In this document: positions 3,900-62,329 of the stretch, piece after piece
How the letters are laid out: each line of letters starts with the position of its first letter
How positions within the stretch are numbered: position 1 is the stretch's first letter
Assembly: GCA_963668025.2 (NCBI GenBank)
Contig: CAXXTH010000010.1
Span: 224,001-288,000 of the forward strand
Source: Candidatus Hydrogenedentota bacterium
GTDB lineage: Bacteria; Hydrogenedentota; Hydrogenedentia; Hydrogenedentales; SLHB01
Reading direction: 5' to 3'
DNA: 64,000 nucleotides
Position numbers and translations under genes: made by a program
Notes under the pieces: generated by a model
Told to the model about the DNA's origin: nothing
Databases searched by the model: none
Seen by the model: the letters and a program-made list of their open reading frames with translations, nothing else

Positions 3900-3972
3900 C
3901 GTAGCATGGGCGTCTCGCCCATGTGGCGATGGCTTATGACGTTTGCGTCATGGGCGAGACGCTCCTGCTACG
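3900..3972. repeat. GTAG-type REP doublet (inverted pair)
   Basis: cGTAGcatgggcgtctcgcccatg ... catgggcgagacgctcctgCTACg; same family recurs at about 16.2, 27.3, 52.4, 60.4 and 62.3 kb. Confidence 0.85.
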
Positions 3973-27251: not shown

Positions 27252-27302
27252 TAGCATGGGCGTCTCGCCCATGCTAGTTGTAGGGTGGGGCTTGCCCCAC
27301 CG
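27252..27302. repeat. REP cluster between the intron and the IS
   Basis: tagcatgggcgtctcgcccatgcta plus GTAGggtggggcttgccccacc; near-identical to the reverse complement of 16231-16280. Confidence 0.85.
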
Positions 27303-27420
27303 CTGGAGTTTCTACCTTTTTTGGGCGAGGTGGACACGCTTTTTCTCTTGCCATCGCACAGCTTATCGTCTTTGTCGTAGCTTCCCTTTCGCCGAATAGG
27401 CCGGTCATTGAAAAGATATA

Positions 27421-27449
27421 TTGACATACCGACTCGTTTGTGCTACAAT
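27421..27449 (+). promoter_or_regulatory. IS-borne consensus sigma70 promoter
   Basis: TTGACA-17 bp-TACAAT with extended TG; RBS aggaggg before ATG 27478; conserved at 60498-60526. Confidence 0.8.
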
Positions 27450-27507
27450 CTTGTCAGCTAGGCAGGAGGGCAGCACCATGAATGACGAATTGCGTGACAC
27501 GATTCTA

Positions 27508-28745
27508 GTACTCCGTAAGTCCTAAAAGGCTGAATAAAAAAGTGTATCTTGCCGATATATCCAGAGGGAGGAATGGGTCTTTCCTTTGGAGGATAACGGC
27601 AATGCCCACAAAGCGATACGTGGTTCGGTTGACAGAAGAGGAGCGCCAGCAACTCCATGGCTTGGTAAGCAAGGGCAAGGCGGCGGCATACAAAATCAGG
27701 CATGCCAACATCCTGCTCAAGGCGGATTGCGACGGGCCGAATTGGAAGGACGAACAGATAGCCGAAGCCTTTGGCTGCCACCGCACCACGGTGGAAGAGG
27801 TGCGCAAGCGGCTGGTTACGCAAGGCATCGAATCCGCCCTGGGCCGCAAGAAGCGGAAAACGCCGCCGACCCCGCGCCGACTCGACGGCGACGCCGAAGC
27901 CCGGCTGGTTGCCATCGCCTGCGGAAAAGCTTCGGAAGGCCGGGCGAAATGGACCATGCGGCTCTTGGCGGACAAACTGGTGGAATTGGGGATCGTGGAT
28001 TCGGTCTCGCACACGACCGTCTGGAAGACGCTTAAAAAAACGAACTCAAGCCGCACTTGCGGAAATGCTGGGTGATACCGCCGAAGCAGGATGGCGAGTT
28101 CGTGGCGGCGATGGAAGACGTACTTGAAGTCTATAAGCGCGGCCGGAACCGAGAGTATCCGCTGGTGTGCATGGACGAACAACCGACGCAGCTCTTGAAG
28201 GAGACGCGAACGCCCTTGCCCGCCGAACCTGGGGAACCGGCGAAACACGACTACGAATACGAGCGCAATGGCACAGCGGCGAACTTCATGTTCACCGCGC
28301 CATTGGAAAACTGGCGGCGGGTGAGTGTGCGGGAGCGCAAGACGAAAATCGATTGGGCACAGGAAATCCGCCAGCTTGTCGATACGGATTTTCCCGAGGC
28401 GTCAAAGATCGTGCTGGTGATGGACAACCTGAACACGCACACGCCGGGGGCGCTATACGAGGCGTTTGCGCCGCAAGAGGCGCGCCGAATTCTGGAGCGG
28501 CTGGAGATTCATTACACGCCGAAGCACGGGAGTTGGCTGAACATGGCGGAGATCGAGTTGAGCGTGTTCACGCGACAGTGCCTGGACCGGCGCATGCCGG
28601 ATCTGGCGACGTTGCGTTCGGAGGCGGTTGCGTGGAACACGAGCCGGAACGATTCGGGGATAGGTGTGGATTGGCACTTCACAACCTCCGACGCCCGGGT
28701 AAAACTAAAACGGCTTTATCCCTTAATTAAGGGCTGACAAGGTAC
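27508..28745 (+). mobile_element. IS630-family element
   Basis: Inserted in CTAG with TA duplication (27506-07, 28746-47); imperfect IRs gtactccgtaagtcc / gggctgacaaggtac; empty site visible in copy 2. Confidence 0.92.
27602..28737 (+). CDS. IS630 transposase, two ORFs probably joined by a -1 frameshift
   Basis: OrfA HTH (WTMRLLADK); slippery A7C at 28034-28041; OrfB DDE (CMDE, VMDNLNTH, TPKHGSWLNMAEIE). Confidence 0.88.
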
Positions 28746-29049
28746 TAGAGGCTATGGAAAAAGGGCTTGAGGCGCAGCTTCGGGCGGTGCGCCGTCTGCG
28801 TAAGGGGGAAGAATCCAGGGAGGAGCCACGACCCAGAACAAGTATGTCGCAAGTAGATATGGCATATGACATACTCTTGAGGGCCGCTCATCCCCTTCAT
28901 GTCAATGAGATCCTGAGTCGCATTCATGCGGTCTTCGGCATTACGGTGGACCGGGAAAGCCTGGTGTCTTCCCTCACCAAAAAGGTGGCTCGGGAAGACC
29001 GCTTTGTCCGCGCGGACAAGAACACCTTCGGACTCAAAGGAGGCAAGCG

Positions 29050-30429
29050 ATGAGTCTTTTACACGAATGGCTCAACGTTACCGAGCGCTGGCGCGATGCT
29101 TTTGCCCAAGAGCGCACCACCGTGCGTGCGGTGCGGCAGGGACTTGGGTCACTGGTCTGTTTGGGGCGGCGCACAATCACGCGGACCCTTTGGGCCTGTG
29201 GTCGCGAGAATCTGCCGTGGCAGGCTGAATACCACATGTACGGCCGCGCCAAGTGGGACCCCCAGCAGCTCTTCGACCCTATTTGGGAAGGAGCCCTGCC
29301 CCAGTGTGAAGACCCGCTTGTAGGCGTCGCCGTCGATGATACCAAGCTGCACAAGACCGGCCGGTGCATTGTCCAGGCTTTTCATCAGCGCGACCCCCTG
29401 TCCCCGCCGTTCCACACCAATCTCATTCTGGGCCTGCGTTTCCTGCAGGCCTCCCTTCTCGTACCGCTTCACCAAGGCGGCGCCTTTAGTTGCCGCGCCT
29501 TGCCCGTGCGTTTCGAGGAGTCTTCCCCCGCCAAGAAGCCTGGCAAGCGCGCAAGCGAGGAGGAGTGGATGGCGTACAAGCAGCGCCGTAAAGAGAAGAA
29601 CCTTTCAACCCATTGCGTGGCGATGATGGACTCCTTGCGCGCATCCCTCGACGCCGTCGGCGCCAGGGAGAAAACCTTGGTCATGGCCCTCGACGGCAGC
29701 TTTTGCAACCAGACCGTCTTCGGCGCTGAACGCGACCGCACCCACCTCATCGCCCGTGCCCGCAAGGACGCAGTCCTATGCTTTGGCGCTCCAGAGGGTT
29801 CGCGGCGTTTCTATGCCCAAGAAAAATTCACCCCCGAGCAAGTACGCCAGGACGATAGCATCCCCTGGAAGACTACGAAGCTATTCTACGGCGGCAAACG
29901 CCGCAAGGTCCGCTACAAGGAAATCAAGACCCTCTACTGGCAAGGCGGCGCGCGCCGTCTTCCCCTCCGCCTTTTCGCTATCGCTCCCACCCCCTACCGC
30001 AAGCGGAAAAGCAGTAAGCTTTATTACCGGCAACCAGCCTACCTTCTTTGTACCGACAGGGTTCACGCCGCACAGAGGCTGCTCCAGATCTACTTCGACC
30101 GCTGGCAGATTGAAGTCAACCATCGCGAGGAAAAGGACACCTTGGGCGTCGGACAAGCTCAGCTCTGGAACCCCAATGCCGTACCCAAGCAGCCCCCGCT
30201 TGCCATCGCCGCCTACAGCGCATTGCTACTGGCCGCCATAAAAACCTTTGGCCCCGAACGAAATAGTGCATACGCCCCGCTGCCACGGTGGCGAAAACAC
30301 GCCACACGCCCATCGTGCCTCGCTCTCATCACTCTATTGAGAAAAGAGATGGACGAACAGCCCCATTTGCTCCGTCCACTCGGCATAGAAACCTCCAGAG
30401 CAACAATGGCAAGCGCCGCGGCTGCTTGA
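29050..30429 (+). CDS. IS701-like DDE transposase (copy 1)
   Basis: VAVDDT..HKTG, ALDGSF, Y..RWQIEVNHREEK..LG (IS4-superfamily YREK-like motif); protein identical to copy 2. Confidence 0.85.
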   Translation: MSLLHEWLNVTERWRDAFAQERTTVRAVRQGLGSLVCLGRRTITRTLWACGRENLPWQAEYHMYGRAKWDPQQLFDPIWEGALPQCEDPLVGVAVDDTKLHKTGRCIVQAFHQRDPLSPPFHTNLILGLRFLQASLLVPLHQGGAFSCRALPVRFEESSPAKKPGKRASEEEWMAYKQRRKEKNLSTHCVAMMDSLRASLDAVGAREKTLVMALDGSFCNQTVFGAERDRTHLIARARKDAVLCFGAPEGSRRFYAQEKFTPEQVRQDDSIPWKTTKLFYGGKRRKVRYKEIKTLYWQGGARRLPLRLFAIAPTPYRKRKSSKLYYRQPAYLLCTDRVHAAQRLLQIYFDRWQIEVNHREEKDTLGVGQAQLWNPNAVPKQPPLAIAAYSALLLAAIKTFGPERNSAYAPLPRWRKHATRPSCLALITLLRKEMDEQPHLLRPLGIETSRATMASAAAA

Positions 30430-30438
30430 TAATGGAGA

Positions 30439-31449
30439 TAGGGCTATCCGCTTGACTCAAGCGAACACCACATGTTGTTGTCTGAGTCACCTTTTCCCTC
30501 CTCGAATGTCGTCGCCTGTCACGGGGCCGACCTGCGCGGCCTGTTGCATCAGCCGATAGAACAGCTTTCCCCGCGAACGCGACGTTCGACTGTTGAAACG
30601 GAAAGTGAACTCGTCCAGGTAGTAGTCAAGATGAGATGGGCGAACTGCTCCTTGGTGTGTGCCGCCAAGCCATCGTTTCAACAAGGACGCCACGCGATGG
30701 GCCAACGGTAACAGGTTGTCGCCGACTTCAGCCAGGGGCCGCACTTTTTCATGCACGTATCCCTTGCTGCTCACAGTAGCATACCCCGTCCATCCATCCG
30801 TATTCACAACGCTTCCCGGTTCGATCATTTCCTGCATAGCAAAGCCTAGACTGGCAGCGGAAGCATCGGGAACCCGGAAAAGCCGAATACGGCCCACATG
30901 CCTGCCTTCATCCTCCACCGCAATCACCACCAACGTTTTTCCCGCCGCCCCTCGTCCGCGTTTGCCCGGCCGCTCACCGCCAATGTATGTTTCGTCCACT
31001 TGCACTGTACCGGAGAGCCGGTCGCGGCCAGGACGAACCATGGCTGTTCGCAGCTTATGCAACCATATCCAAGTCGTCTCGTACCGCGAAAGCCCCAATA
31101 CACGTTGTAGACCAAGCGCGCTCACTCCCTGTTTCTGGCTGACCACGTACCACATGGCCCGAAACCAAAGCCGCAAGGGCTTCCGGGTATCCTGAAAGAT
31201 GGTTCCAGCAGTAACTGACGTCTCATATCCGCAGGCTTTGCAGTGCCACAAGCCCCTCTCGGTAGTCCACGCACCGGGGTGCTCGCACCTCGGGCAACGA
31301 AACCCGTCCGGCCAGCGGACCTCGGCCAAATACTGGCGGCAGGCAACCTCCGTCGCAAAGCGATCCTCGAACTCCAGGACTGTCTCCGGGTAATTCTCCA
31401 TGCCCAGATACTACATGTTGTGCCCACTTGACTCAAGCGGATAGCCCCA
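30439..31449 (-). mobile_element. IS1595-family element
   Basis: 23-bp imperfect IRs tagggctatccgcttgactcaag / cttgactcaagcggatagcccca; 8-bp TSD aatggaga (30431-38, 31450-57). Confidence 0.92.
30487..31401 (-). CDS. IS1595-family transposase
   Basis: Zn ribbon RWPDGFRCPRC..CKAC; VQVDETYIGG; TDGW; YLDEFTFRFN. Confidence 0.93.
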   Translation of the reverse strand: MENYPETVLEFEDRFATEVACRQYLAEVRWPDGFRCPRCEHPGAWTTERGLWHCKACGYETSVTAGTIFQDTRKPLRLWFRAMWYVVSQKQGVSALGLQRVLGLSRYETTWIWLHKLRTAMVRPGRDRLSGTVQVDETYIGGERPGKRGRGAAGKTLVVIAVEDEGRHVGRIRLFRVPDASAASLGFAMQEMIEPGSVVNTDGWTGYATVSSKGYVHEKVRPLAEVGDNLLPLAHRVASLLKRWLGGTHQGAVRPSHLDYYLDEFTFRFNSRTSRSRGKLFYRLMQQAAQVGPVTGDDIRGGKR

Positions 31450-31465
31450 AATGGAGAAACTCCAG

Positions 31466-32120
31466 AGCATGGCCTTTGGACGTGGTCATAGGGCCTGTGG
31501 CTCAGCCTGTTTGAGCCCATCGGCATCCCCTACACTCGTGTTGTTCCGCAACACCAAGGAAGGAGATGCCAATGAGTCGTTTCCGCAAATTATCACATGC
31601 GATATGGTATTGCCAATATCACATGGTATGGGCGCCCAAATACCGCTACCGGGTTTTGACGGGACCGGTGGGCAAGGAGGTCTACACCTGTATCCAAATG
31701 TTCTGTGGGCAGCAAGGATGCGGGGTGCTCGAATTGAATGTACAGCCCGAGCACGTGCATTTGCTTGTGATGGTTCCGCCAAAGGTGTCGATATCGGATC
31801 TGGCGGGCATTTTGAAGGGGCGTACGGCGATCCGGATATTCAAGCAGTTTCCGCATTTGAAAAAGAAGCCCTATTGGGGCAATCATTTCTGGGCGCCTGG
31901 GTATTGCGTGGATACCGTGGGGCTTAACGAAGAAATGATCCGCAAGTACGTGAAGTTCCAGGAAGAAGCGGAACGTCACGATGAACAGCTAAAATTGAAG
32001 TACTAAACCAAGCGGTGTTGCGGAACACAACCCACGCTTGCATCCTTTGGGTGCAAGCACTCAGCCACTCTCTGAGTGGCCAAAGCAAAGCCACGTCCTC
32101 TGGGCGTGGTTTTTTACTGG
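31466..32120 (+). mobile_element. IS200-like element (tnpA only); ends approximate
   Basis: Imperfect left hairpin agcatggcctttggacgtggt and right hairpin aagccacgtcctctgggcgtggttt flank tnpA. Confidence 0.7.
31572..32006 (+). CDS. tnpA: IS200/IS605 Y1 transposase
   Basis: YHMVWAPKYR, HUH motif EHVHL, FWAPGYCVDTVG, catalytic Y in IRKYVKFQ. Confidence 0.93.
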   Translation: MSRFRKLSHAIWYCQYHMVWAPKYRYRVLTGPVGKEVYTCIQMFCGQQGCGVLELNVQPEHVHLLVMVPPKVSISDLAGILKGRTAIRIFKQFPHLKKKPYWGNHFWAPGYCVDTVGLNEEMIRKYVKFQEEAERHDEQLKLKY

Positions 32121-57696: not shown

Positions 57697-59518
57697 GAGG
57701 CATTTGCGAAATAGCGTGGTTTGCGAACGCGCGGACGGTGCGGGCACACGCGGAGCGGTTTTCGCCTGTGGCAATGGGATTACGCCTCCGCTACGGGTGC
57801 AATAAATCATGCAGGAGGTTCGCGTGTAGGACCCTTGCGGCCCGAATGGGCATGGTTTGCCCTTGATTCGGGCCATCATTGCTTGTGCGGATTCGATGTG
57901 ATCTATGCGGCGCGGGGCTGTCCGAGGAGCGAGCGCATGCGTTCTGCCTGGCCGGCTTCGAGCCATCCCAGGGCCATGCCGAGCATGACGAGGAGGGCTA
58001 ATCCGGTGCGGGCGCGCATCTTTTTCATACCGCGGATGTAGTGGCGCTCGAATCCGTATGCGCCGTCGAGTCGGCTGTTGACTCGCTCGATGGCGGTGCG
58101 GTGTTTGTATTCGCGGCGCCAGGATTTGGCGCTGCGGGGCAGGGGGGTAAAGATGCGCCGGTCGATAGCGATGGGCACGCGGACAATCCGTCCGTGTTCG
58201 GGCTGGCATCCTTGGTTGCAGAGGTCTTGCTGGGTACAGGCGCTCCCGCGTGCCTTGGCTGGGCAACGGTATTTCAAGGTTCCCCGATCTTGCTCGAATC
58301 CTTGGTAGGCCATGGAATCATAGTTGTCGCGTTCGTTTGGGGCGCCGTTACGACACCGGCAGAGGACTTCACCTCGTTCGGTATGGAAGATCGTGTCTAC
58401 CCGTTCGGGATATAAAGGGCGGGGCCGTTCCGGTTCTTCTTTCCAGGTCGCCCGGATGTCCACGATGGGCCGGATTTCATGTTCCTCGAAGAGGCCCTTG
58501 TTGTTGGCTTCGGAATCATAGCCCTTGTCGGCGCTGAGGTACTCGGCGCGTTGGACGAGTTCGGGGTGGCGCGCGTCGAGAGCCGCCACGAGGGGCAGCA
58601 GAAAGGGCGAGTCGTTGGCGCTGGCTTTCGTGACCGCGTAGCCCAGCGGCAATTCATATTTCGTGTCCACGATGAGGTGCAGCTTGTAGCCGAACCACCG
58701 TTTGACCTTCTCCCAGGGCGTGCCGTCCTTGTGAACGCCCTTGTAGGTTTTCGTGCCCCAGTCTGCGTCGCGGTCGCGCCGCCCGTCCGGCTCTTCGTTT
58801 TCCAGGACCGCGTCTTTGCGCGGAGGCTTGGCGTGGGTTTGGATGGCTTTCGAGTCTACGGCCAGACGCACCCCGAGATCCGGCAAGCGTTCCATCAGCC
58901 GGACGATGAGCGCGTCGAACATCCGGTCCACTTCTTTCCAGTGGCGCAGTAATCTGGCGAAGAACCGCGTGTACACCCATTCGGGCGGGACCGCCTTGGC
59001 GCCCCGCAACACGTCGAATCCGCACAACTGGCGCAATTGCCCGTTTCGGGCTAGTTCGCGGCGCAGGCTTTCGACGCCGTCGTGCTGGAAGACGATCCCC
59101 GCCAGTATGCTGTTCCACATCGCGCGGATAGGATAATCGTCGCGCCGCCCCTTGCGTTCGGCTTCCATCGCCCGCATCAAATCTTCATCCGGCAGCGCCG
59201 CCAGCAACAGGTTCAGCCGATCCAGATCCGACGCCGCGTCGACCTGGTTCCACGAGAACAACCCCATTTGGTGTATAATGGCCATCGCAAACGTCTCCTT
59301 GGTGTGTGCGTGGTTATGTGGTCAACTATACTACAATCACACACGGGAGACGTTACGCCTTTTCCCGCTCGCCGAGGGCATTTGGGGTGATTTTTCACAA
59401 AAAATCCTTATTCATGCCCCCGCCAAGCCCCTTTCCCCGCATTCTCCGGGGTAGGCGCCAATTCCGCCGCTTTGTAAACCCTTGTCAATACGGATTTTCT
59501 TTATTTCGCAAATGCCTC
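57697..59518 (-). mobile_element. IS1182/IS5-like element
   Basis: Perfect 17-bp IRs gaggcatttgcgaaata / tatttcgcaaatgcctc; no TSD. Confidence 0.88.
57903..59285 (-). CDS. DDE transposase (DUF772-like N-terminus, IS1182-like)
   Basis: GRRDDYP, AVDS, WFGYKLHL, ADKGYDS, Y..RTAIERVNSRL. Confidence 0.9.
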   Translation of the reverse strand: MAIIHQMGLFSWNQVDAASDLDRLNLLLAALPDEDLMRAMEAERKGRRDDYPIRAMWNSILAGIVFQHDGVESLRRELARNGQLRQLCGFDVLRGAKAVPPEWVYTRFFARLLRHWKEVDRMFDALIVRLMERLPDLGVRLAVDSKAIQTHAKPPRKDAVLENEEPDGRRDRDADWGTKTYKGVHKDGTPWEKVKRWFGYKLHLIVDTKYELPLGYAVTKASANDSPFLLPLVAALDARHPELVQRAEYLSADKGYDSEANNKGLFEEHEIRPIVDIRATWKEEPERPRPLYPERVDTIFHTERGEVLCRCRNGAPNERDNYDSMAYQGFEQDRGTLKYRCPAKARGSACTQQDLCNQGCQPEHGRIVRVPIAIDRRIFTPLPRSAKSWRREYKHRTAIERVNSRLDGAYGFERHYIRGMKKMRARTGLALLVMLGMALGWLEAGQAERMRSLLGQPRAA

Positions 59519-60279
59519 CCTGTGTCCGGAATCTATACTTCAAGGGCGATCTTTCCACTTGGTATTCGCAATACTATTTTACTAAAGATTTGGCAAAATT
59601 CCTGAACACCCTGGAAAAGACGCACCGGGTTCAAAAACTGATGCAGATTATCCGCACACGGACGCCAGAAGCAAAAGCCCAATTGAAGGCATCTGTCATC
59701 GATATGTGCCATTTTTACATACAAAAAGCGCCGTTATTGCCGCCGGAGGCTCCGTGCAACACGGATCCGGCTTCGGTTACATTTGCGAATGAGCCGTCCG
59801 CGTATTTCCCAAAAGACGGCATTGCGTATGCCTATTTATTGAGCTACCTAGATGAAAAGGGCGATATGCTGCCATTGCTTGTACAAATACACAAACGCCA
59901 GCAAGACGCATCCTATGAAATGAGCATGTTTATGCGTAGCAAAAAAGGCGCGGAAGATGCCGAAGCGCCGCCAAAGGCATTCACTGGGACCGCACATGGC
60001 GCGGTCATCGCCTATGCCTGTGGCCAGATCCTACGCAAAATAATTTTGGACGAGGAACTGAAAGCTTCCTTAAGCACCAACCAGAAGAGTGTATTGGAAC
60101 AATTCACTCAGTTAGAAATGGCGGAACAAACGGAGTGGGAGGCGGACGTCGCGGAATGGTCTCAAAATTCCAGTGAGCCATTTGATAAAAGAAGGCCTGA
60201 TTGGAGAGATATGGAAAGCCAATCGGAAATCCTGCCACTCGCGGAAGCATTCGTGAATGCCGGACAAGAATCAAAGTGA
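59519..60279 (+). pseudogene. 3' part of a hypothetical gene that lost its start at the IS end
   Basis: Open frame with natural composition; the only upstream in-frame start (59482) lies inside the IS. Confidence 0.5.
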
Positions 60280-60554
60280 AACTTAGGTGGTTCATTATTA
60301 CAGGCGAGAACGTTTCAAGATTGGATGTAGCACCACGAATGGATTTCCATCTTCCGTGGCATGGGCGTCCCGCCCATGCCTGGAGTTTCTACCTTTTTTG
60401 GGCGAGGTGGACACGCTTTTTCTCTTGCCATCGCACAGCTTATCGTCTTTGTCGTAGCTTCCCTTTCGCCGAATAGGCCGGTCATTTAAAATATATATTG
60501 ACATACCGACTCGTTTGTGCTACAATCTTGTTGGCTAGGCAGGAGGGCGGCGCC

Positions 60555-60890
60555 ATGAATGACGAATTGCGTGACACGATCCTAGAGGCTATGGAAAAAG
60601 GGCTTGAGGCGCAGCTTCGGGCGGTGCGCCGTCTGCGTAGGGGGGAAGAATCCAGGGAGGAGCCACGACCCAGAACAAGTATGTCGCAAGTAGATATGGC
60701 ATATGACATACTCTTGAGGGCCGCTCATCCCCTTCATGTCAATGAGATCCTGAGTCGCATTCATGCGGTCTTCGGCATTACGGTGGACCGGGAAAGCCTG
60801 GTGTCTTCCCTCACCAAAAAGGTGGCTCGGGAAGACCGCTTTGTCCGCGCGGACAAGAACACCTTCGGACTCAAAGGAGGCAAGCGATGA
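60555..60890 (+). CDS. Small winged-helix (HARE-HTH-like) accessory protein of the IS
   Basis: MSQVDMAYDIL..A.HPLHVNEIL..I......SLVSSL.K.V....RFVR...NTFGL; stop overlaps the transposase ATG (ATGA). Confidence 0.75.
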   Translation: MNDELRDTILEAMEKGLEAQLRAVRRLRRGEESREEPRPRTSMSQVDMAYDILLRAAHPLHVNEILSRIHAVFGITVDRESLVSSLTKKVAREDRFVRADKNTFGLKGGKR

Positions 60891-62266
60891 GTCTTTTACA
60901 CGAATGGCTCAACGTTACCGAGCGCTGGCGCGATGCTTTTGCCCAAGAGCGCACCACCGTGCGTGCGGTGCGGCAGGGACTTGGGTCACTGGTCTGTTTG
61001 GGGCGGCGCACAATCACGCGGACCCTTTGGGCCTGTGGTCGCGAGAATCTGCCGTGGCAGGCTGAATACCACATGTACGGCCGCGCCAAGTGGGACCCCC
61101 AGCAGCTCTTCGACCCTATTTGGGAAGGAGCCCTGCCCCAGTGTGAAGACCCGCTTGTAGGCGTCGCCGTCGATGATACCAAGCTGCACAAGACCGGCCG
61201 GTGCATTGTCCAGGCTTTTCATCAGCGCGACCCCCTGTCCCCGCCGTTCCACACCAATCTCATTCTGGGCCTGCGTTTCCTGCAGGCCTCCCTTCTCGTA
61301 CCGCTTCACCAAGGCGGCGCCTTTAGTTGCCGCGCCTTGCCCGTGCGTTTCGAGGAGTCTTCCCCCGCCAAGAAGCCTGGCAAGCGCGCAAGCGAGGAGG
61401 AGTGGATGGCGTACAAGCAGCGCCGTAAAGAGAAGAACCTTTCAACCCATTGCGTGGCGATGATGGACTCCTTGCGCGCATCCCTCGACGCCGTCGGCGC
61501 CAGGGAGAAAACCTTGGTCATGGCCCTCGACGGCAGCTTTTGCAACCAGACCGTCTTCGGCGCTGAACGCGACCGCACCCACCTCATCGCCCGTGCCCGC
61601 AAGGACGCAGTCCTATGCTTTGGCGCTCCAGAGGGTTCGCGGCGTTTCTATGCCCAAGAAAAATTCACCCCCGAGCAAGTACGCCAGGACGATAGCATCC
61701 CCTGGAAGACTACGAAGCTATTCTACGGCGGCAAACGCCGCAAGGTCCGCTACAAGGAAATCAAGACCCTCTACTGGCAAGGCGGCGCGCGCCGTCTTCC
61801 CCTCCGCCTTTTCGCTATCGCTCCCACCCCCTACCGCAAGCGGAAAAGCAGTAAGCTTTATTACCGGCAACCAGCCTACCTTCTTTGTACCGACAGGGTT
61901 CACGCCGCACAGAGGCTGCTCCAGATCTACTTCGACCGCTGGCAGATTGAAGTCAACCATCGCGAGGAAAAGGACACCTTGGGCGTCGGACAAGCTCAGC
62001 TCTGGAACCCCAATGCCGTACCCAAGCAGCCCCCGCTTGCCATCGCCGCCTACAGCGCATTGCTACTGGCCGCCATAAAAACCTTTGGCCCCGAACGAAA
62101 TAGTGCATACGCCCCGCTGCCACGGTGGCGAAAACACGCCACACGCCCATCGTGCCTCGCTCTCATCACTCTATTGAGAAAAGAGATGGACGAACAGCCC
62201 CATTTGCTCCGTCCACTCGGCATAGAAACCTCCAGAGCAACAATGGCAAGCGCCGCGGCTGCTTAA
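60887..62266 (+). CDS. IS701-like DDE transposase (copy 2)
   Basis: Protein identical to 29050-30429. Confidence 0.85.
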   Translation: MSLLHEWLNVTERWRDAFAQERTTVRAVRQGLGSLVCLGRRTITRTLWACGRENLPWQAEYHMYGRAKWDPQQLFDPIWEGALPQCEDPLVGVAVDDTKLHKTGRCIVQAFHQRDPLSPPFHTNLILGLRFLQASLLVPLHQGGAFSCRALPVRFEESSPAKKPGKRASEEEWMAYKQRRKEKNLSTHCVAMMDSLRASLDAVGAREKTLVMALDGSFCNQTVFGAERDRTHLIARARKDAVLCFGAPEGSRRFYAQEKFTPEQVRQDDSIPWKTTKLFYGGKRRKVRYKEIKTLYWQGGARRLPLRLFAIAPTPYRKRKSSKLYYRQPAYLLCTDRVHAAQRLLQIYFDRWQIEVNHREEKDTLGVGQAQLWNPNAVPKQPPLAIAAYSALLLAAIKTFGPERNSAYAPLPRWRKHATRPSCLALITLLRKEMDEQPHLLRPLGIETSRATMASAAAA

Positions 62267-62283
62267 TAATGGAGAAACTCCAG

Positions 62284-62329
62284 GCATGGGCGTCCCGCCC
62301 ATGAACATGGCCGGGACGGCCATGCTACG
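62284..62329. repeat. REP doublet right of IS copy 2
   Basis: gcatgggcgtcccgcccatg-aa-catggccgggacggccatgCTACg. Confidence 0.8.

Follow-up and report, generated by a model that had tools for sequence, protein, structure and literature searches.

A 64,000-nucleotide stretch of DNA from a Candidatus Hydrogenedentota bacterium (contig CAXXTH010000010.1, positions 224,001 to 288,000; called the window below) carries an insertion sequence (IS) at positions 60380 to 62283 of that stretch. We analyzed its flanks, its other copies in the genome and its relatives in other genomes. The element represents a subgroup that probably inserts at hairpin-forming palindromes, mostly repetitive extragenic palindromes (REPs), with a target duplication that comprises the whole palindrome and with capture of the target likeliest in the form of a cruciform. 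The duplication is real and variable, ranging from 17 to 32 bp; it is centred on the dyad of the hairpin, and its length follows that of the hairpin one-for-one. The data support a duplicated unit that usually consists of the perfect stem-loop plus approximately 1 nt per side. The element appears to be an active-looking member of a large and widespread subgroup whose members measure 1.83–1.92 kb, end in CTGGAGTTTCT...AGAAACTCCAG, and carry a small accessory gene followed by a transposase gene.

An insertion flanked by two copies of a REP hairpin

The locus extends from 60355 to 62329 of the window and contains the following features, with the basis of each assignment in parentheses.

60355–60358, + strand: cgtg, 5' tag of a REP doublet, a variant of the usual cgta(g) (comparison with other doublet flanks)
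60359–60379, + strand: left hairpin copy, g + catgggcg-tcc-cgcccatg + c (sequence)
60380–62283, + strand: insertion sequence, 1904 bp, from CTGGAG to CTCCAG (boundaries by comparison of the genome's copies)
60380–60390, + strand: left terminal inverted repeat CTGGAGTTTCT, 11 bp, perfect (sequence)
62273–62283, + strand: right terminal inverted repeat AGAAACTCCAG, 11 bp, perfect (sequence)
62284–62304, + strand: right copy of the duplicated hairpin (sequence)
62306–62329, + strand: inverted partner hairpin catggccg-gga-cggccatg with its ctacg tag, the remainder of the REP doublet (sequence and REP census)

The boundary of the IS was set at CTGGAG...CTCCAG because the adjoining outside base varies (C, G or A) among approximately 10 copies in the genome, the flanks of which diverge exactly beyond these motifs. 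Immediately outside lies the direct repeat gcatgggcgtcccgcccatg, 20 bp in length, at 60359–60378 and at 62284–62303, with one extra C at 60379. The two hairpin copies of the window are identical over these 20 bp, the 21st base being c in the left copy and a in the right; the differing base is thus the last base of the left hairpin copy. Each 20-bp repeat amounts to one REP hairpin with an 8-bp stem and a 3-nt loop. Excision in silico of the IS together with one copy of the repeat yields cgtggcatgggcgtcccgcccatg-aa-catggccgggacggccatgctacg, which is the most frequent doublet architecture in the window's genome. The window copy is an insertion into the first hairpin of a REP doublet. An initial annotation of the window had placed the 11-bp inverted repeats, the direct repeat and the extra left C at these same positions, and had read the repeat as exactly one REP hairpin whose removal with the IS restores a canonical doublet; the sequence and the REP census agree with it on all of these points. 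It had taken the doublet at 3900–3972 as its model, and here the restoration of a doublet stands, but the doublet at 3900–3972 is itself of a rarer, long-spacer form.

The genome of the window (6.1 Mb, 24 contigs) contains 221 hairpins of type 1. All 57 close neighbor pairs among these are inverted partners, 48 of them at 21–22 bp spacing, and no direct tandem was found among the 57. Likewise, no hairpin was found in the 52 tandem repeats of period 15–35 in the 6.1-Mb genome. By their features (short G+C-rich palindromes, many copies, inverted doublets and cgtag...ctacg tags) the target hairpins are GTAG-tagged REPs, a family described in PMC3733652.

Direct repeats and hairpins at related loci

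Relatives of the transposase are numerous in the databases (more than 6000 at E ≤ 1e-10), and one close relative is labelled Candidatus Hydrogenedentes. Using a profile of 20 relatives, we retrieved 80 related loci with transposases 61–74% identical, mainly from Acidobacteriota but also from Hydrogenedentota, Armatimonadota and a Lysobacterales metagenome-assembled genome (MAG). Both end motifs and enough flank were present in 74 of the 80, the ends being 1828–1919 bp apart. Six loci were dropped because the pair of ends or the flanks were incomplete, and one (L057) because it was mis-paired, leaving 73 usable loci. An exact direct repeat of 17–32 bp touches both ends of the IS in 39 of the 73, and these 39 repeats comprise 37 distinct sequences. 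A further 14 loci have a repeat of at least 20 nt with no more than 3 mismatches or with an offset of 1–3 nt, and one has a partial repeat. When right flanks were shuffled among loci (2000 shuffles), exact repeats of at least 17 bp were obtained at a mean of 0.10 loci and a maximum of 2, compared to the 39 observed. A perfect hairpin is found at 67 of the 73 left ends and at 63 of the 73 right ends, compared to 1.6% of 20,000 random positions.

Several target hairpins are unique or nearly so in their genomes. Even with mismatches allowed, two targets, one of 32 bp in L015 and one of 20 bp in L017, have no copies in their own genomes (7.5 and 8.1 Mb) beyond the pair that flanks the IS. The L024 target (25 bp) has one distant relative elsewhere in its genome, and the L075 target (28 bp) has a single additional copy, solitary rather than tandem. 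Since some targets are unique in the genome, it is the shape and not the sequence that is recognized; the claim of the initial annotation that the element reads structure rather than sequence gains support from these targets and from the relation of lengths described next. The same annotation had proposed a check in which duplication length would be compared with hairpin length across relatives, and the prediction held.

In 38 of the 39 loci with exact repeats, the centre of the repeat coincides with the dyad of the hairpin. Measured against the perfect stem, the overhang on each side is +1 nt in 24 loci, 0 in eight, +2 in two and −1 in two; three of the 39 loci were left out of this count and of the regression due to a stem mismatch or an off-centre position by one base. 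Regression of repeat length on hairpin length over the 36 loci with clean stems gave a slope of 0.99 ± 0.09 (r = 0.88). The extremes are 17 bp at a 6-bp stem (L042), 28 bp (L075), and 32 bp at a 13-bp stem (L015).

Where the two hairpin copies of a related locus differ, the changes sit beside the IS, in the 5' arm of the right copy in L023, L055, L067, L070, L071, L080 and L089. In the Bryobacterales genome among the sources, the changed arms converge on the commonest arm sequence. As a guess, these differences could have arisen when a few bases of flank were co-converted as copies recombined. At L046 and L058 the right hairpin has the reverse-complement sequence of its left counterpart, such that the loop is inverted, and at L032 each flank carries 30 nt that recur in inverted orientation in the other.

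Mechanism of insertion and alternatives

A fixed active-site spacing cannot give staggers of 17–32 bp on B-form DNA. In the mechanism that we infer to be likeliest, the transposase would capture its target as an extruded cruciform, that is, a four-way junction, or would induce one, and strand transfer would take place at the junction base. In an extruded palindrome the two phosphates at the junction base would lie close together whatever the length of the arms, providing a constant spacing. The two 3'-OH ends of the transposon would attack the two strands at the junction base with a small true stagger of approximately 2 bp, or about 1 nt per side. Each flank would then bear one single-stranded hairpin arm, which gap repair would make duplex to give two complete hairpins, and both neighboring transcription units would retain an intact REP or terminator hairpin. 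Whole-unit duplication has a counterpart in CRISPR spacer integration by Cas1-Cas2. There, strand transfer occurs once at each border of a partly palindromic unit, and gap repair then leaves two full copies of it; the enzymes are unrelated, however, and Cas1-Cas2 acts upon a fixed repeat sequence measured by internal motifs. It is possible, and we put it forward tentatively, that this DDE subgroup provides the first known case of integration into the base of a cruciform four-way junction, with the secondary structure of the target itself serving as the ruler.

Several observations weigh against this interpretation. The 20-mer of the window repeat occurs 88 times in the genome, counting both strands, and matching flanks of the window copy alone are therefore weak evidence; a likeness by chance is possible for that copy taken alone, though not for the family, and the weight of the evidence rests on the doublet argument and on the relatives. 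As to the relatives, 30 of the 80 loci come from one complete Bryobacterales chromosome; with 27 loci from a single chromosome in the comparison, the loci are not independent. Moreover, 19 of the 73 usable loci have no repeat. Assembly chimeras cannot account for all of these repeat-less loci because long-read assemblies are among them (L018, L022, L025, L028, L049, L056 and L076). REPs vary little in length, and for this reason the one-for-one slope leans on a few long or short cases: 31 of the 39 exact repeats are 19–22 bp, and the slope falls to 0.77 ± 0.14 once the two longest cases are removed. Within the window's genome, a clean repeat is found in one of the seven two-ended copies, the window copy itself, and five two-ended copies have unrelated hairpins on their two sides. 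No empty site was recovered for any insertion, which means that the duplication is deduced from static genomes. As for the presumed cruciform step, short G+C-rich palindromes with stems of 7–10 bp extrude poorly in the absence of protein help or strong supercoiling.

The search for empty sites covered several sources. None was found in thirty relatives of the window's genome, all of other genera, where the nearest flank match was 75% identical and not adjacent; none in four public sequencing runs, in which contigs break at repeats and the site is unbridged; none in relatives of the L017 genome; none in four other MAGs with the same type of IS; and none on plasmids, which carry only relatives of 26% identity. 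Exact-match scans of metagenome contigs gave 0 hits each for stretches of the left and the right flank. One of the plasmid relatives (L103, 26% identity) has conventional 20-bp terminal repeats.

The scarcity of matched flanks in the window's genome was examined by comparison of its copies. Four copies are uninterrupted, three are interrupted by other IS, one is decayed, and there are several fragments of 99.3–100% identity. By inspection, a perfect hairpin lies within 0–3 nt of 15 of the 19 IS ends, with an imperfect hairpin at the other four; these hairpins fall into five or more sequence types. The initial annotation had named short duplications of fixed length at non-palindromic sites as contrary evidence; none was seen among the copies examined. 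The copy at C10:1048617-1050521 has a decayed repeat of a rare hairpin. Four copies, designated E, F, G and H, show all four combinations of two nested-insertion markers, namely an IS630-type or another element at a CTAG site, and the presence or absence of an IS1595-type element near the right end. Copies F and H have 40 nt of right flank in common and different left flanks. The copies have demonstrably recombined, and homologous recombination between near-identical copies has probably separated most of the original flank pairs in this genome. Candidate mates exist on different copies: the left flank at C10:455514 matches the right flank at C23:400327 perfectly along a 23-bp overlap, and the two joined would again make up a complete doublet. 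Such mates are not proof because REPs are too repetitive (36–88 genome copies of the relevant words).

Two other origins of the flanking hairpins were considered and rejected. A hairpin that travels with the IS is ruled out, as copies that are 99.5% identical carry different hairpins. Insertion of REPs beside IS ends is ruled out as well, some of the targets being unique non-REP hairpins.

An alternative to the reading of the hairpin as ruler is that the transposase cuts B-form DNA approximately two helical turns (20–22 bp) apart with a mere preference for dyad symmetry, the length fit being a by-product of REPs that are about 20 bp long. The prevalence of 19–22-bp repeats and the drop in slope upon removal of the two longest cases both favor such a fixed spacing. 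Nevertheless, we consider it unlikely: repeats of 17, 18, 25, 28 and 32 bp each fit their own hairpin to within 1–2 nt per side, the standard deviation of 2.7 for repeat length becomes 1.3 once hairpin length is subtracted, and the parity of the repeat always follows that of the hairpin (38 of 39 centred).

Whole-hairpin duplication might also occur upon a target other than a supercoil-driven cruciform, either a hairpin on single-stranded DNA (a lagging-strand template or a transcription bubble) or a protein-bent duplex. This would produce the same geometry as the cruciform and would avoid the general reluctance of short G+C-rich palindromes to extrude. However, the two-sided duplication implies DDE transfer into both strands, which needs both strands at the site, and a strand-specific target would tend to bias orientation, whereas inspection of the Bryobacterales loci in G031 revealed no orientation bias relative to REP tags, these being found on either side of the IS; a target of this kind is, in our estimation, quite unlikely.

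It is very improbable that the IS instead inserts, duplicating few or no bases, between two hairpins that were already adjacent in a REP array or as tandem REPs. Mixed-type REP clusters do exist (such as window 27252–27301), and many copies have different hairpins on their two sides. Yet matching partners occur at 39 of 73 loci against 0.1 expected, all 57 neighboring type-1 pairs are inverted with none direct, and the uniqueness of the L015 and L017 targets together with the lack of IS-less tandem direct hairpins in the 6.1-Mb genome and in 466 kb of related loci makes pre-existing tandems, which the initial annotation had named as refuting its proposal, very unlikely.

Each DDE transposase normally leaves its own fixed length of target duplication; the geometry of the transpososome dictates this length, and IS families are defined with its help. 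A length set by the target implies capture of a non-B DNA structure and leads to a testable rule, according to which the duplication equals the palindrome plus approximately 2 bp. If this is true, any palindrome would be a potential landing pad, copied intact to both sides. Since both neighbors keep an intact hairpin, insertions should be unusually benign, and the long palindromic direct repeats (20 bp) should ease clean, scarless loss. Insertions would then be reversible and structure-guided, and could be a source of new REP copies independent of REP-associated tyrosine transposases (RAYTs). The question bears on the attraction of REPs for mobile elements and on insertions that spare neighboring genes, as well as on the existence of cruciforms in living bacteria, for which the element would serve as a natural probe in vivo; an integrase guided by shape may also be of practical interest. 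Because the group is large and found in several phyla, annotation pipelines that seek short duplications will mis-set its boundaries.

Genes of the element, known systems and other copies

The IS contains two genes and a candidate promoter.

60498–60526, + strand: sigma-70-like promoter TTGACA-17-TACAAT ahead of the small gene, 11 of 12 matches, with TG before the −10 (consensus match only)
60555–60890, + strand: small gene, 111 aa; HARE-HTH-type winged helix preceded by a long N-terminal helix (profiles and fold model)
60887–62266, + strand: DDE transposase gene, 459 aa (profiles)

The stop codon of the small gene overlaps the start of the transposase gene (ATGA). The transposase has a complete Y-2-R-3-E-6-K motif, YFDRWQIEVNHREEK, at residues 348–362, which is invariant in an alignment of 20 relatives. 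It matches Pfam DDE_5 with 34 bits (cut-off 27), NCBIfam transpos_IS701_3 (NF049999) with E = 7e-39 and 133.8 bits, below the cut-off of 170, and NCBIfam transpos_IS701 with 38 bits (cut-off 150). The IS4 profiles score 17–28 bits against cut-offs of 115–250, similarity to the IS1634 profile is negligible (E = 0.059), and no IS1182 model is present among the eight NCBIfam hits at E ≤ 0.1.

The small protein scores just below the cut-off for Pfam HARE-HTH (PF05066; E = 1e-4, 23 bits, cut-off 25.9) and below that for the NCBIfam model of the RNA polymerase (RNAP) delta subunit (E = 2.5e-5). Its fold model, with a predicted local distance difference test (pLDDT) score of 84, has helices at residues 3–28, 45–55, 62–73 and 79–91 and a two-strand wing; the best matches in the PDB are RNAP delta N-terminal domains, and these are weak (E of 2e-3 or weaker). 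The model (60555–60887) also weakly matches Z-DNA-binding Z-alpha domains, with a root-mean-square deviation of 1.5 over 63–64 residues and E of about 0.1, a curious match given the non-B DNA targets of the element. Prediction of a complex between transposase and small protein gave scores of 0.01, 0.54 and 0.00, compared to a mark of 0.32.

A homologue of the small gene lies directly upstream of the transposase in 73 of the 80 related loci; the protein is conserved, with a mean column identity of 77% and an invariant N-terminal helix. The seven loci without it are L062, which is truncated, and L013, L014, L040, L053, L077 and L078. In both of the loci inspected, an unrelated DUF6788 gene (E = 3e-10) takes the place of the small gene (L013:933-1253 and L077:2083-2436). 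L077 and L078 nonetheless have 20-bp duplications at imperfect hairpins, and L013, L014, L040 and L053 have hairpins at both IS ends. Because the sub-branch with the DUF6788 gene is still found at hairpins with 20-bp duplications, the winged-helix protein is unnecessary for targeting. The choice of hairpins most likely resides in the transposase, and the small proteins may serve as a regulator or DNA-binding helper. Thus, of the initial proposal that the winged-helix protein is a targeting or regulatory factor, the reality and conservation of the protein hold, but a requirement for it in targeting does not.

We regard the element as a new subgroup within the IS4/IS701 superfamily, only loosely IS701-like. 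IS701 elements measure 1400–1550 bp, make duplications of 'exactly four' bp, have ends of the form ---YACT-Y--YR, and possess an incomplete YREK motif in which the Y is kept in 4 of 27 members (De Palmenaer et al. 2008, PMC2266710). The element resembles them in having a DDE transposase of the IS4 superfamily, with IS701-type profiles as its best matches. It differs in its length of 1904 bp, its two genes, its ends CTGGAGTTTCTACC, its complete YREK motif, and its duplication of 20–21 bp in the window and 17–32 bp in the 39 related loci. The description 'IS701-like' in the initial annotation is consequently justified by weak profile similarity and not by duplication length, size, end consensus or the missing Y. 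A complete YREK motif is a likeness to the IS4 family sensu stricto, which differs in making duplications of 7–13 bp and in profiles that score the element far below their cut-offs.

Closest in behavior is IS1272/TnSha1 of the IS1182 family, a DDE-type element that picks hairpins of varied size and sequence on the basis of structure (Furi et al. 2016, PMC4923244; Wan et al. 2017, PMC5678879). As described in these papers, IS1272 deletes or replaces part or all of the stem-loop without duplication. The present element, by comparison, leaves intact hairpins on both sides, and its transposase is not of IS1182 type by profile. IS1634 and IS1549 are likewise IS4-related and have long direct repeats of variable length, 8–514 bp, for which the passage on them in PMC2266710 gives no accepted model and no link to hairpins; in our element the repeat length is set by the palindrome and the range is far narrower.

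REPs are known as landing sites for IS1397 and ISKpn1 (IS3 family), IS621, ISPpu9/10 and ISPa11 (IS110 family) and ISRm22 (IS4 family) (Tobes and Pareja 2006, PMC1525189; Delihas 2011, PMC3184786). According to these two sources, REP-targeting IS of the IS3, IS110, IS4, IS256 and IS5 families insert at a fixed position in or beside the REP, which is split, with duplications of 0, 2 or 6 bp. Use of REPs is common to these IS and to the element, but theirs is sequence-specific, and RNA-guided in the case of IS110, whereas the element keeps the REP whole on both sides and also uses non-REP hairpins. We found no paper on whole-hairpin duplication by an IS in a literature search that did not extend to ISfinder, TnPedia, or supplements such as the lists of IS701 members in PMC2266710 and the alignments of flanks in PMC1525189, so that any atypical member given there would have been missed. 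The hairpin-duplicating group is apparently undescribed, and whole-hairpin target duplication by a DDE IS would be new.

A second copy of the IS in the window, copy 1, is located as follows.

27284–27302, + strand: REP hairpin ggtggggc-tt-gccccacc + g, directly adjoining copy 1 on the left (sequence)
27303–31465, + strand: copy 1 of the same IS, twice interrupted (copy comparison)
31466–31488, + strand: imperfect hairpin a-gcatggcc-ttt-ggacgtgg-tca, abutting the true right end of copy 1 (sequence)

The initial annotation had set copy 1 between a different REP on the left and the left-end hairpin of an IS200 element on the right. The left-hand REP is as described; the right-hand hairpin exists but is imperfect (31467–31485), and it lies 80 bp before a Y1_Tnp (IS200-like) gene. 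As a correction, the element nested near the right end is of IS1595 type, and the IS200-like gene lies beyond. The Y1_Tnp gene (31566–32006, E = 1e-39) may belong to an IS200 or to a RAYT, and the hairpin beside it is one of a family of 14–16 copies (ccacgtcc-ttt-ggacgtgg). The IS1595-type IS occupies 30439–31449 (minus strand, ISXO2-like DDE plus zinc ribbon) with an 8-bp duplication, AATGGAGA; it sits within copy 1, 8 bp short of the right end, and the C24 copy contains the identical insertion. An IS630-type element at approximately 27509–28744, with open reading frames matching HTH_32 and DDE_3, is nested at CTAG, positions 204–207 of copy 1. The same CTAG site holds a different element in the C19 and C24 copies, marking it as a hot spot.

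The decayed copy at C18:500950-502068 is 73–78% identical and has an internal deletion, stop codons and no right end; its left end still abuts a degenerate hairpin. The Bryobacterales chromosome contains 117 matches to the IS end motif. In G031, a 108-bp unit resembling a miniature inverted-repeat transposable element (L099, G031:C1:7196335-7196442) has both IS end motifs and no genes, with a hairpin on the left side only and without a direct repeat. Also in G031, at L057, L063 and L100, another repeat ending ...gtgctgggctgtt flanks two IS copies in which the terminal CTG/CAG is replaced; at L100 this repeat abuts the solitary copy of the L075 hairpin, and it may represent a second hairpin-favoring element. 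Just to the left of the locus studied here, at 58400–59522 of the window (1123 bp), lies another repeated element that is 100% identical to C23:33858-34980.

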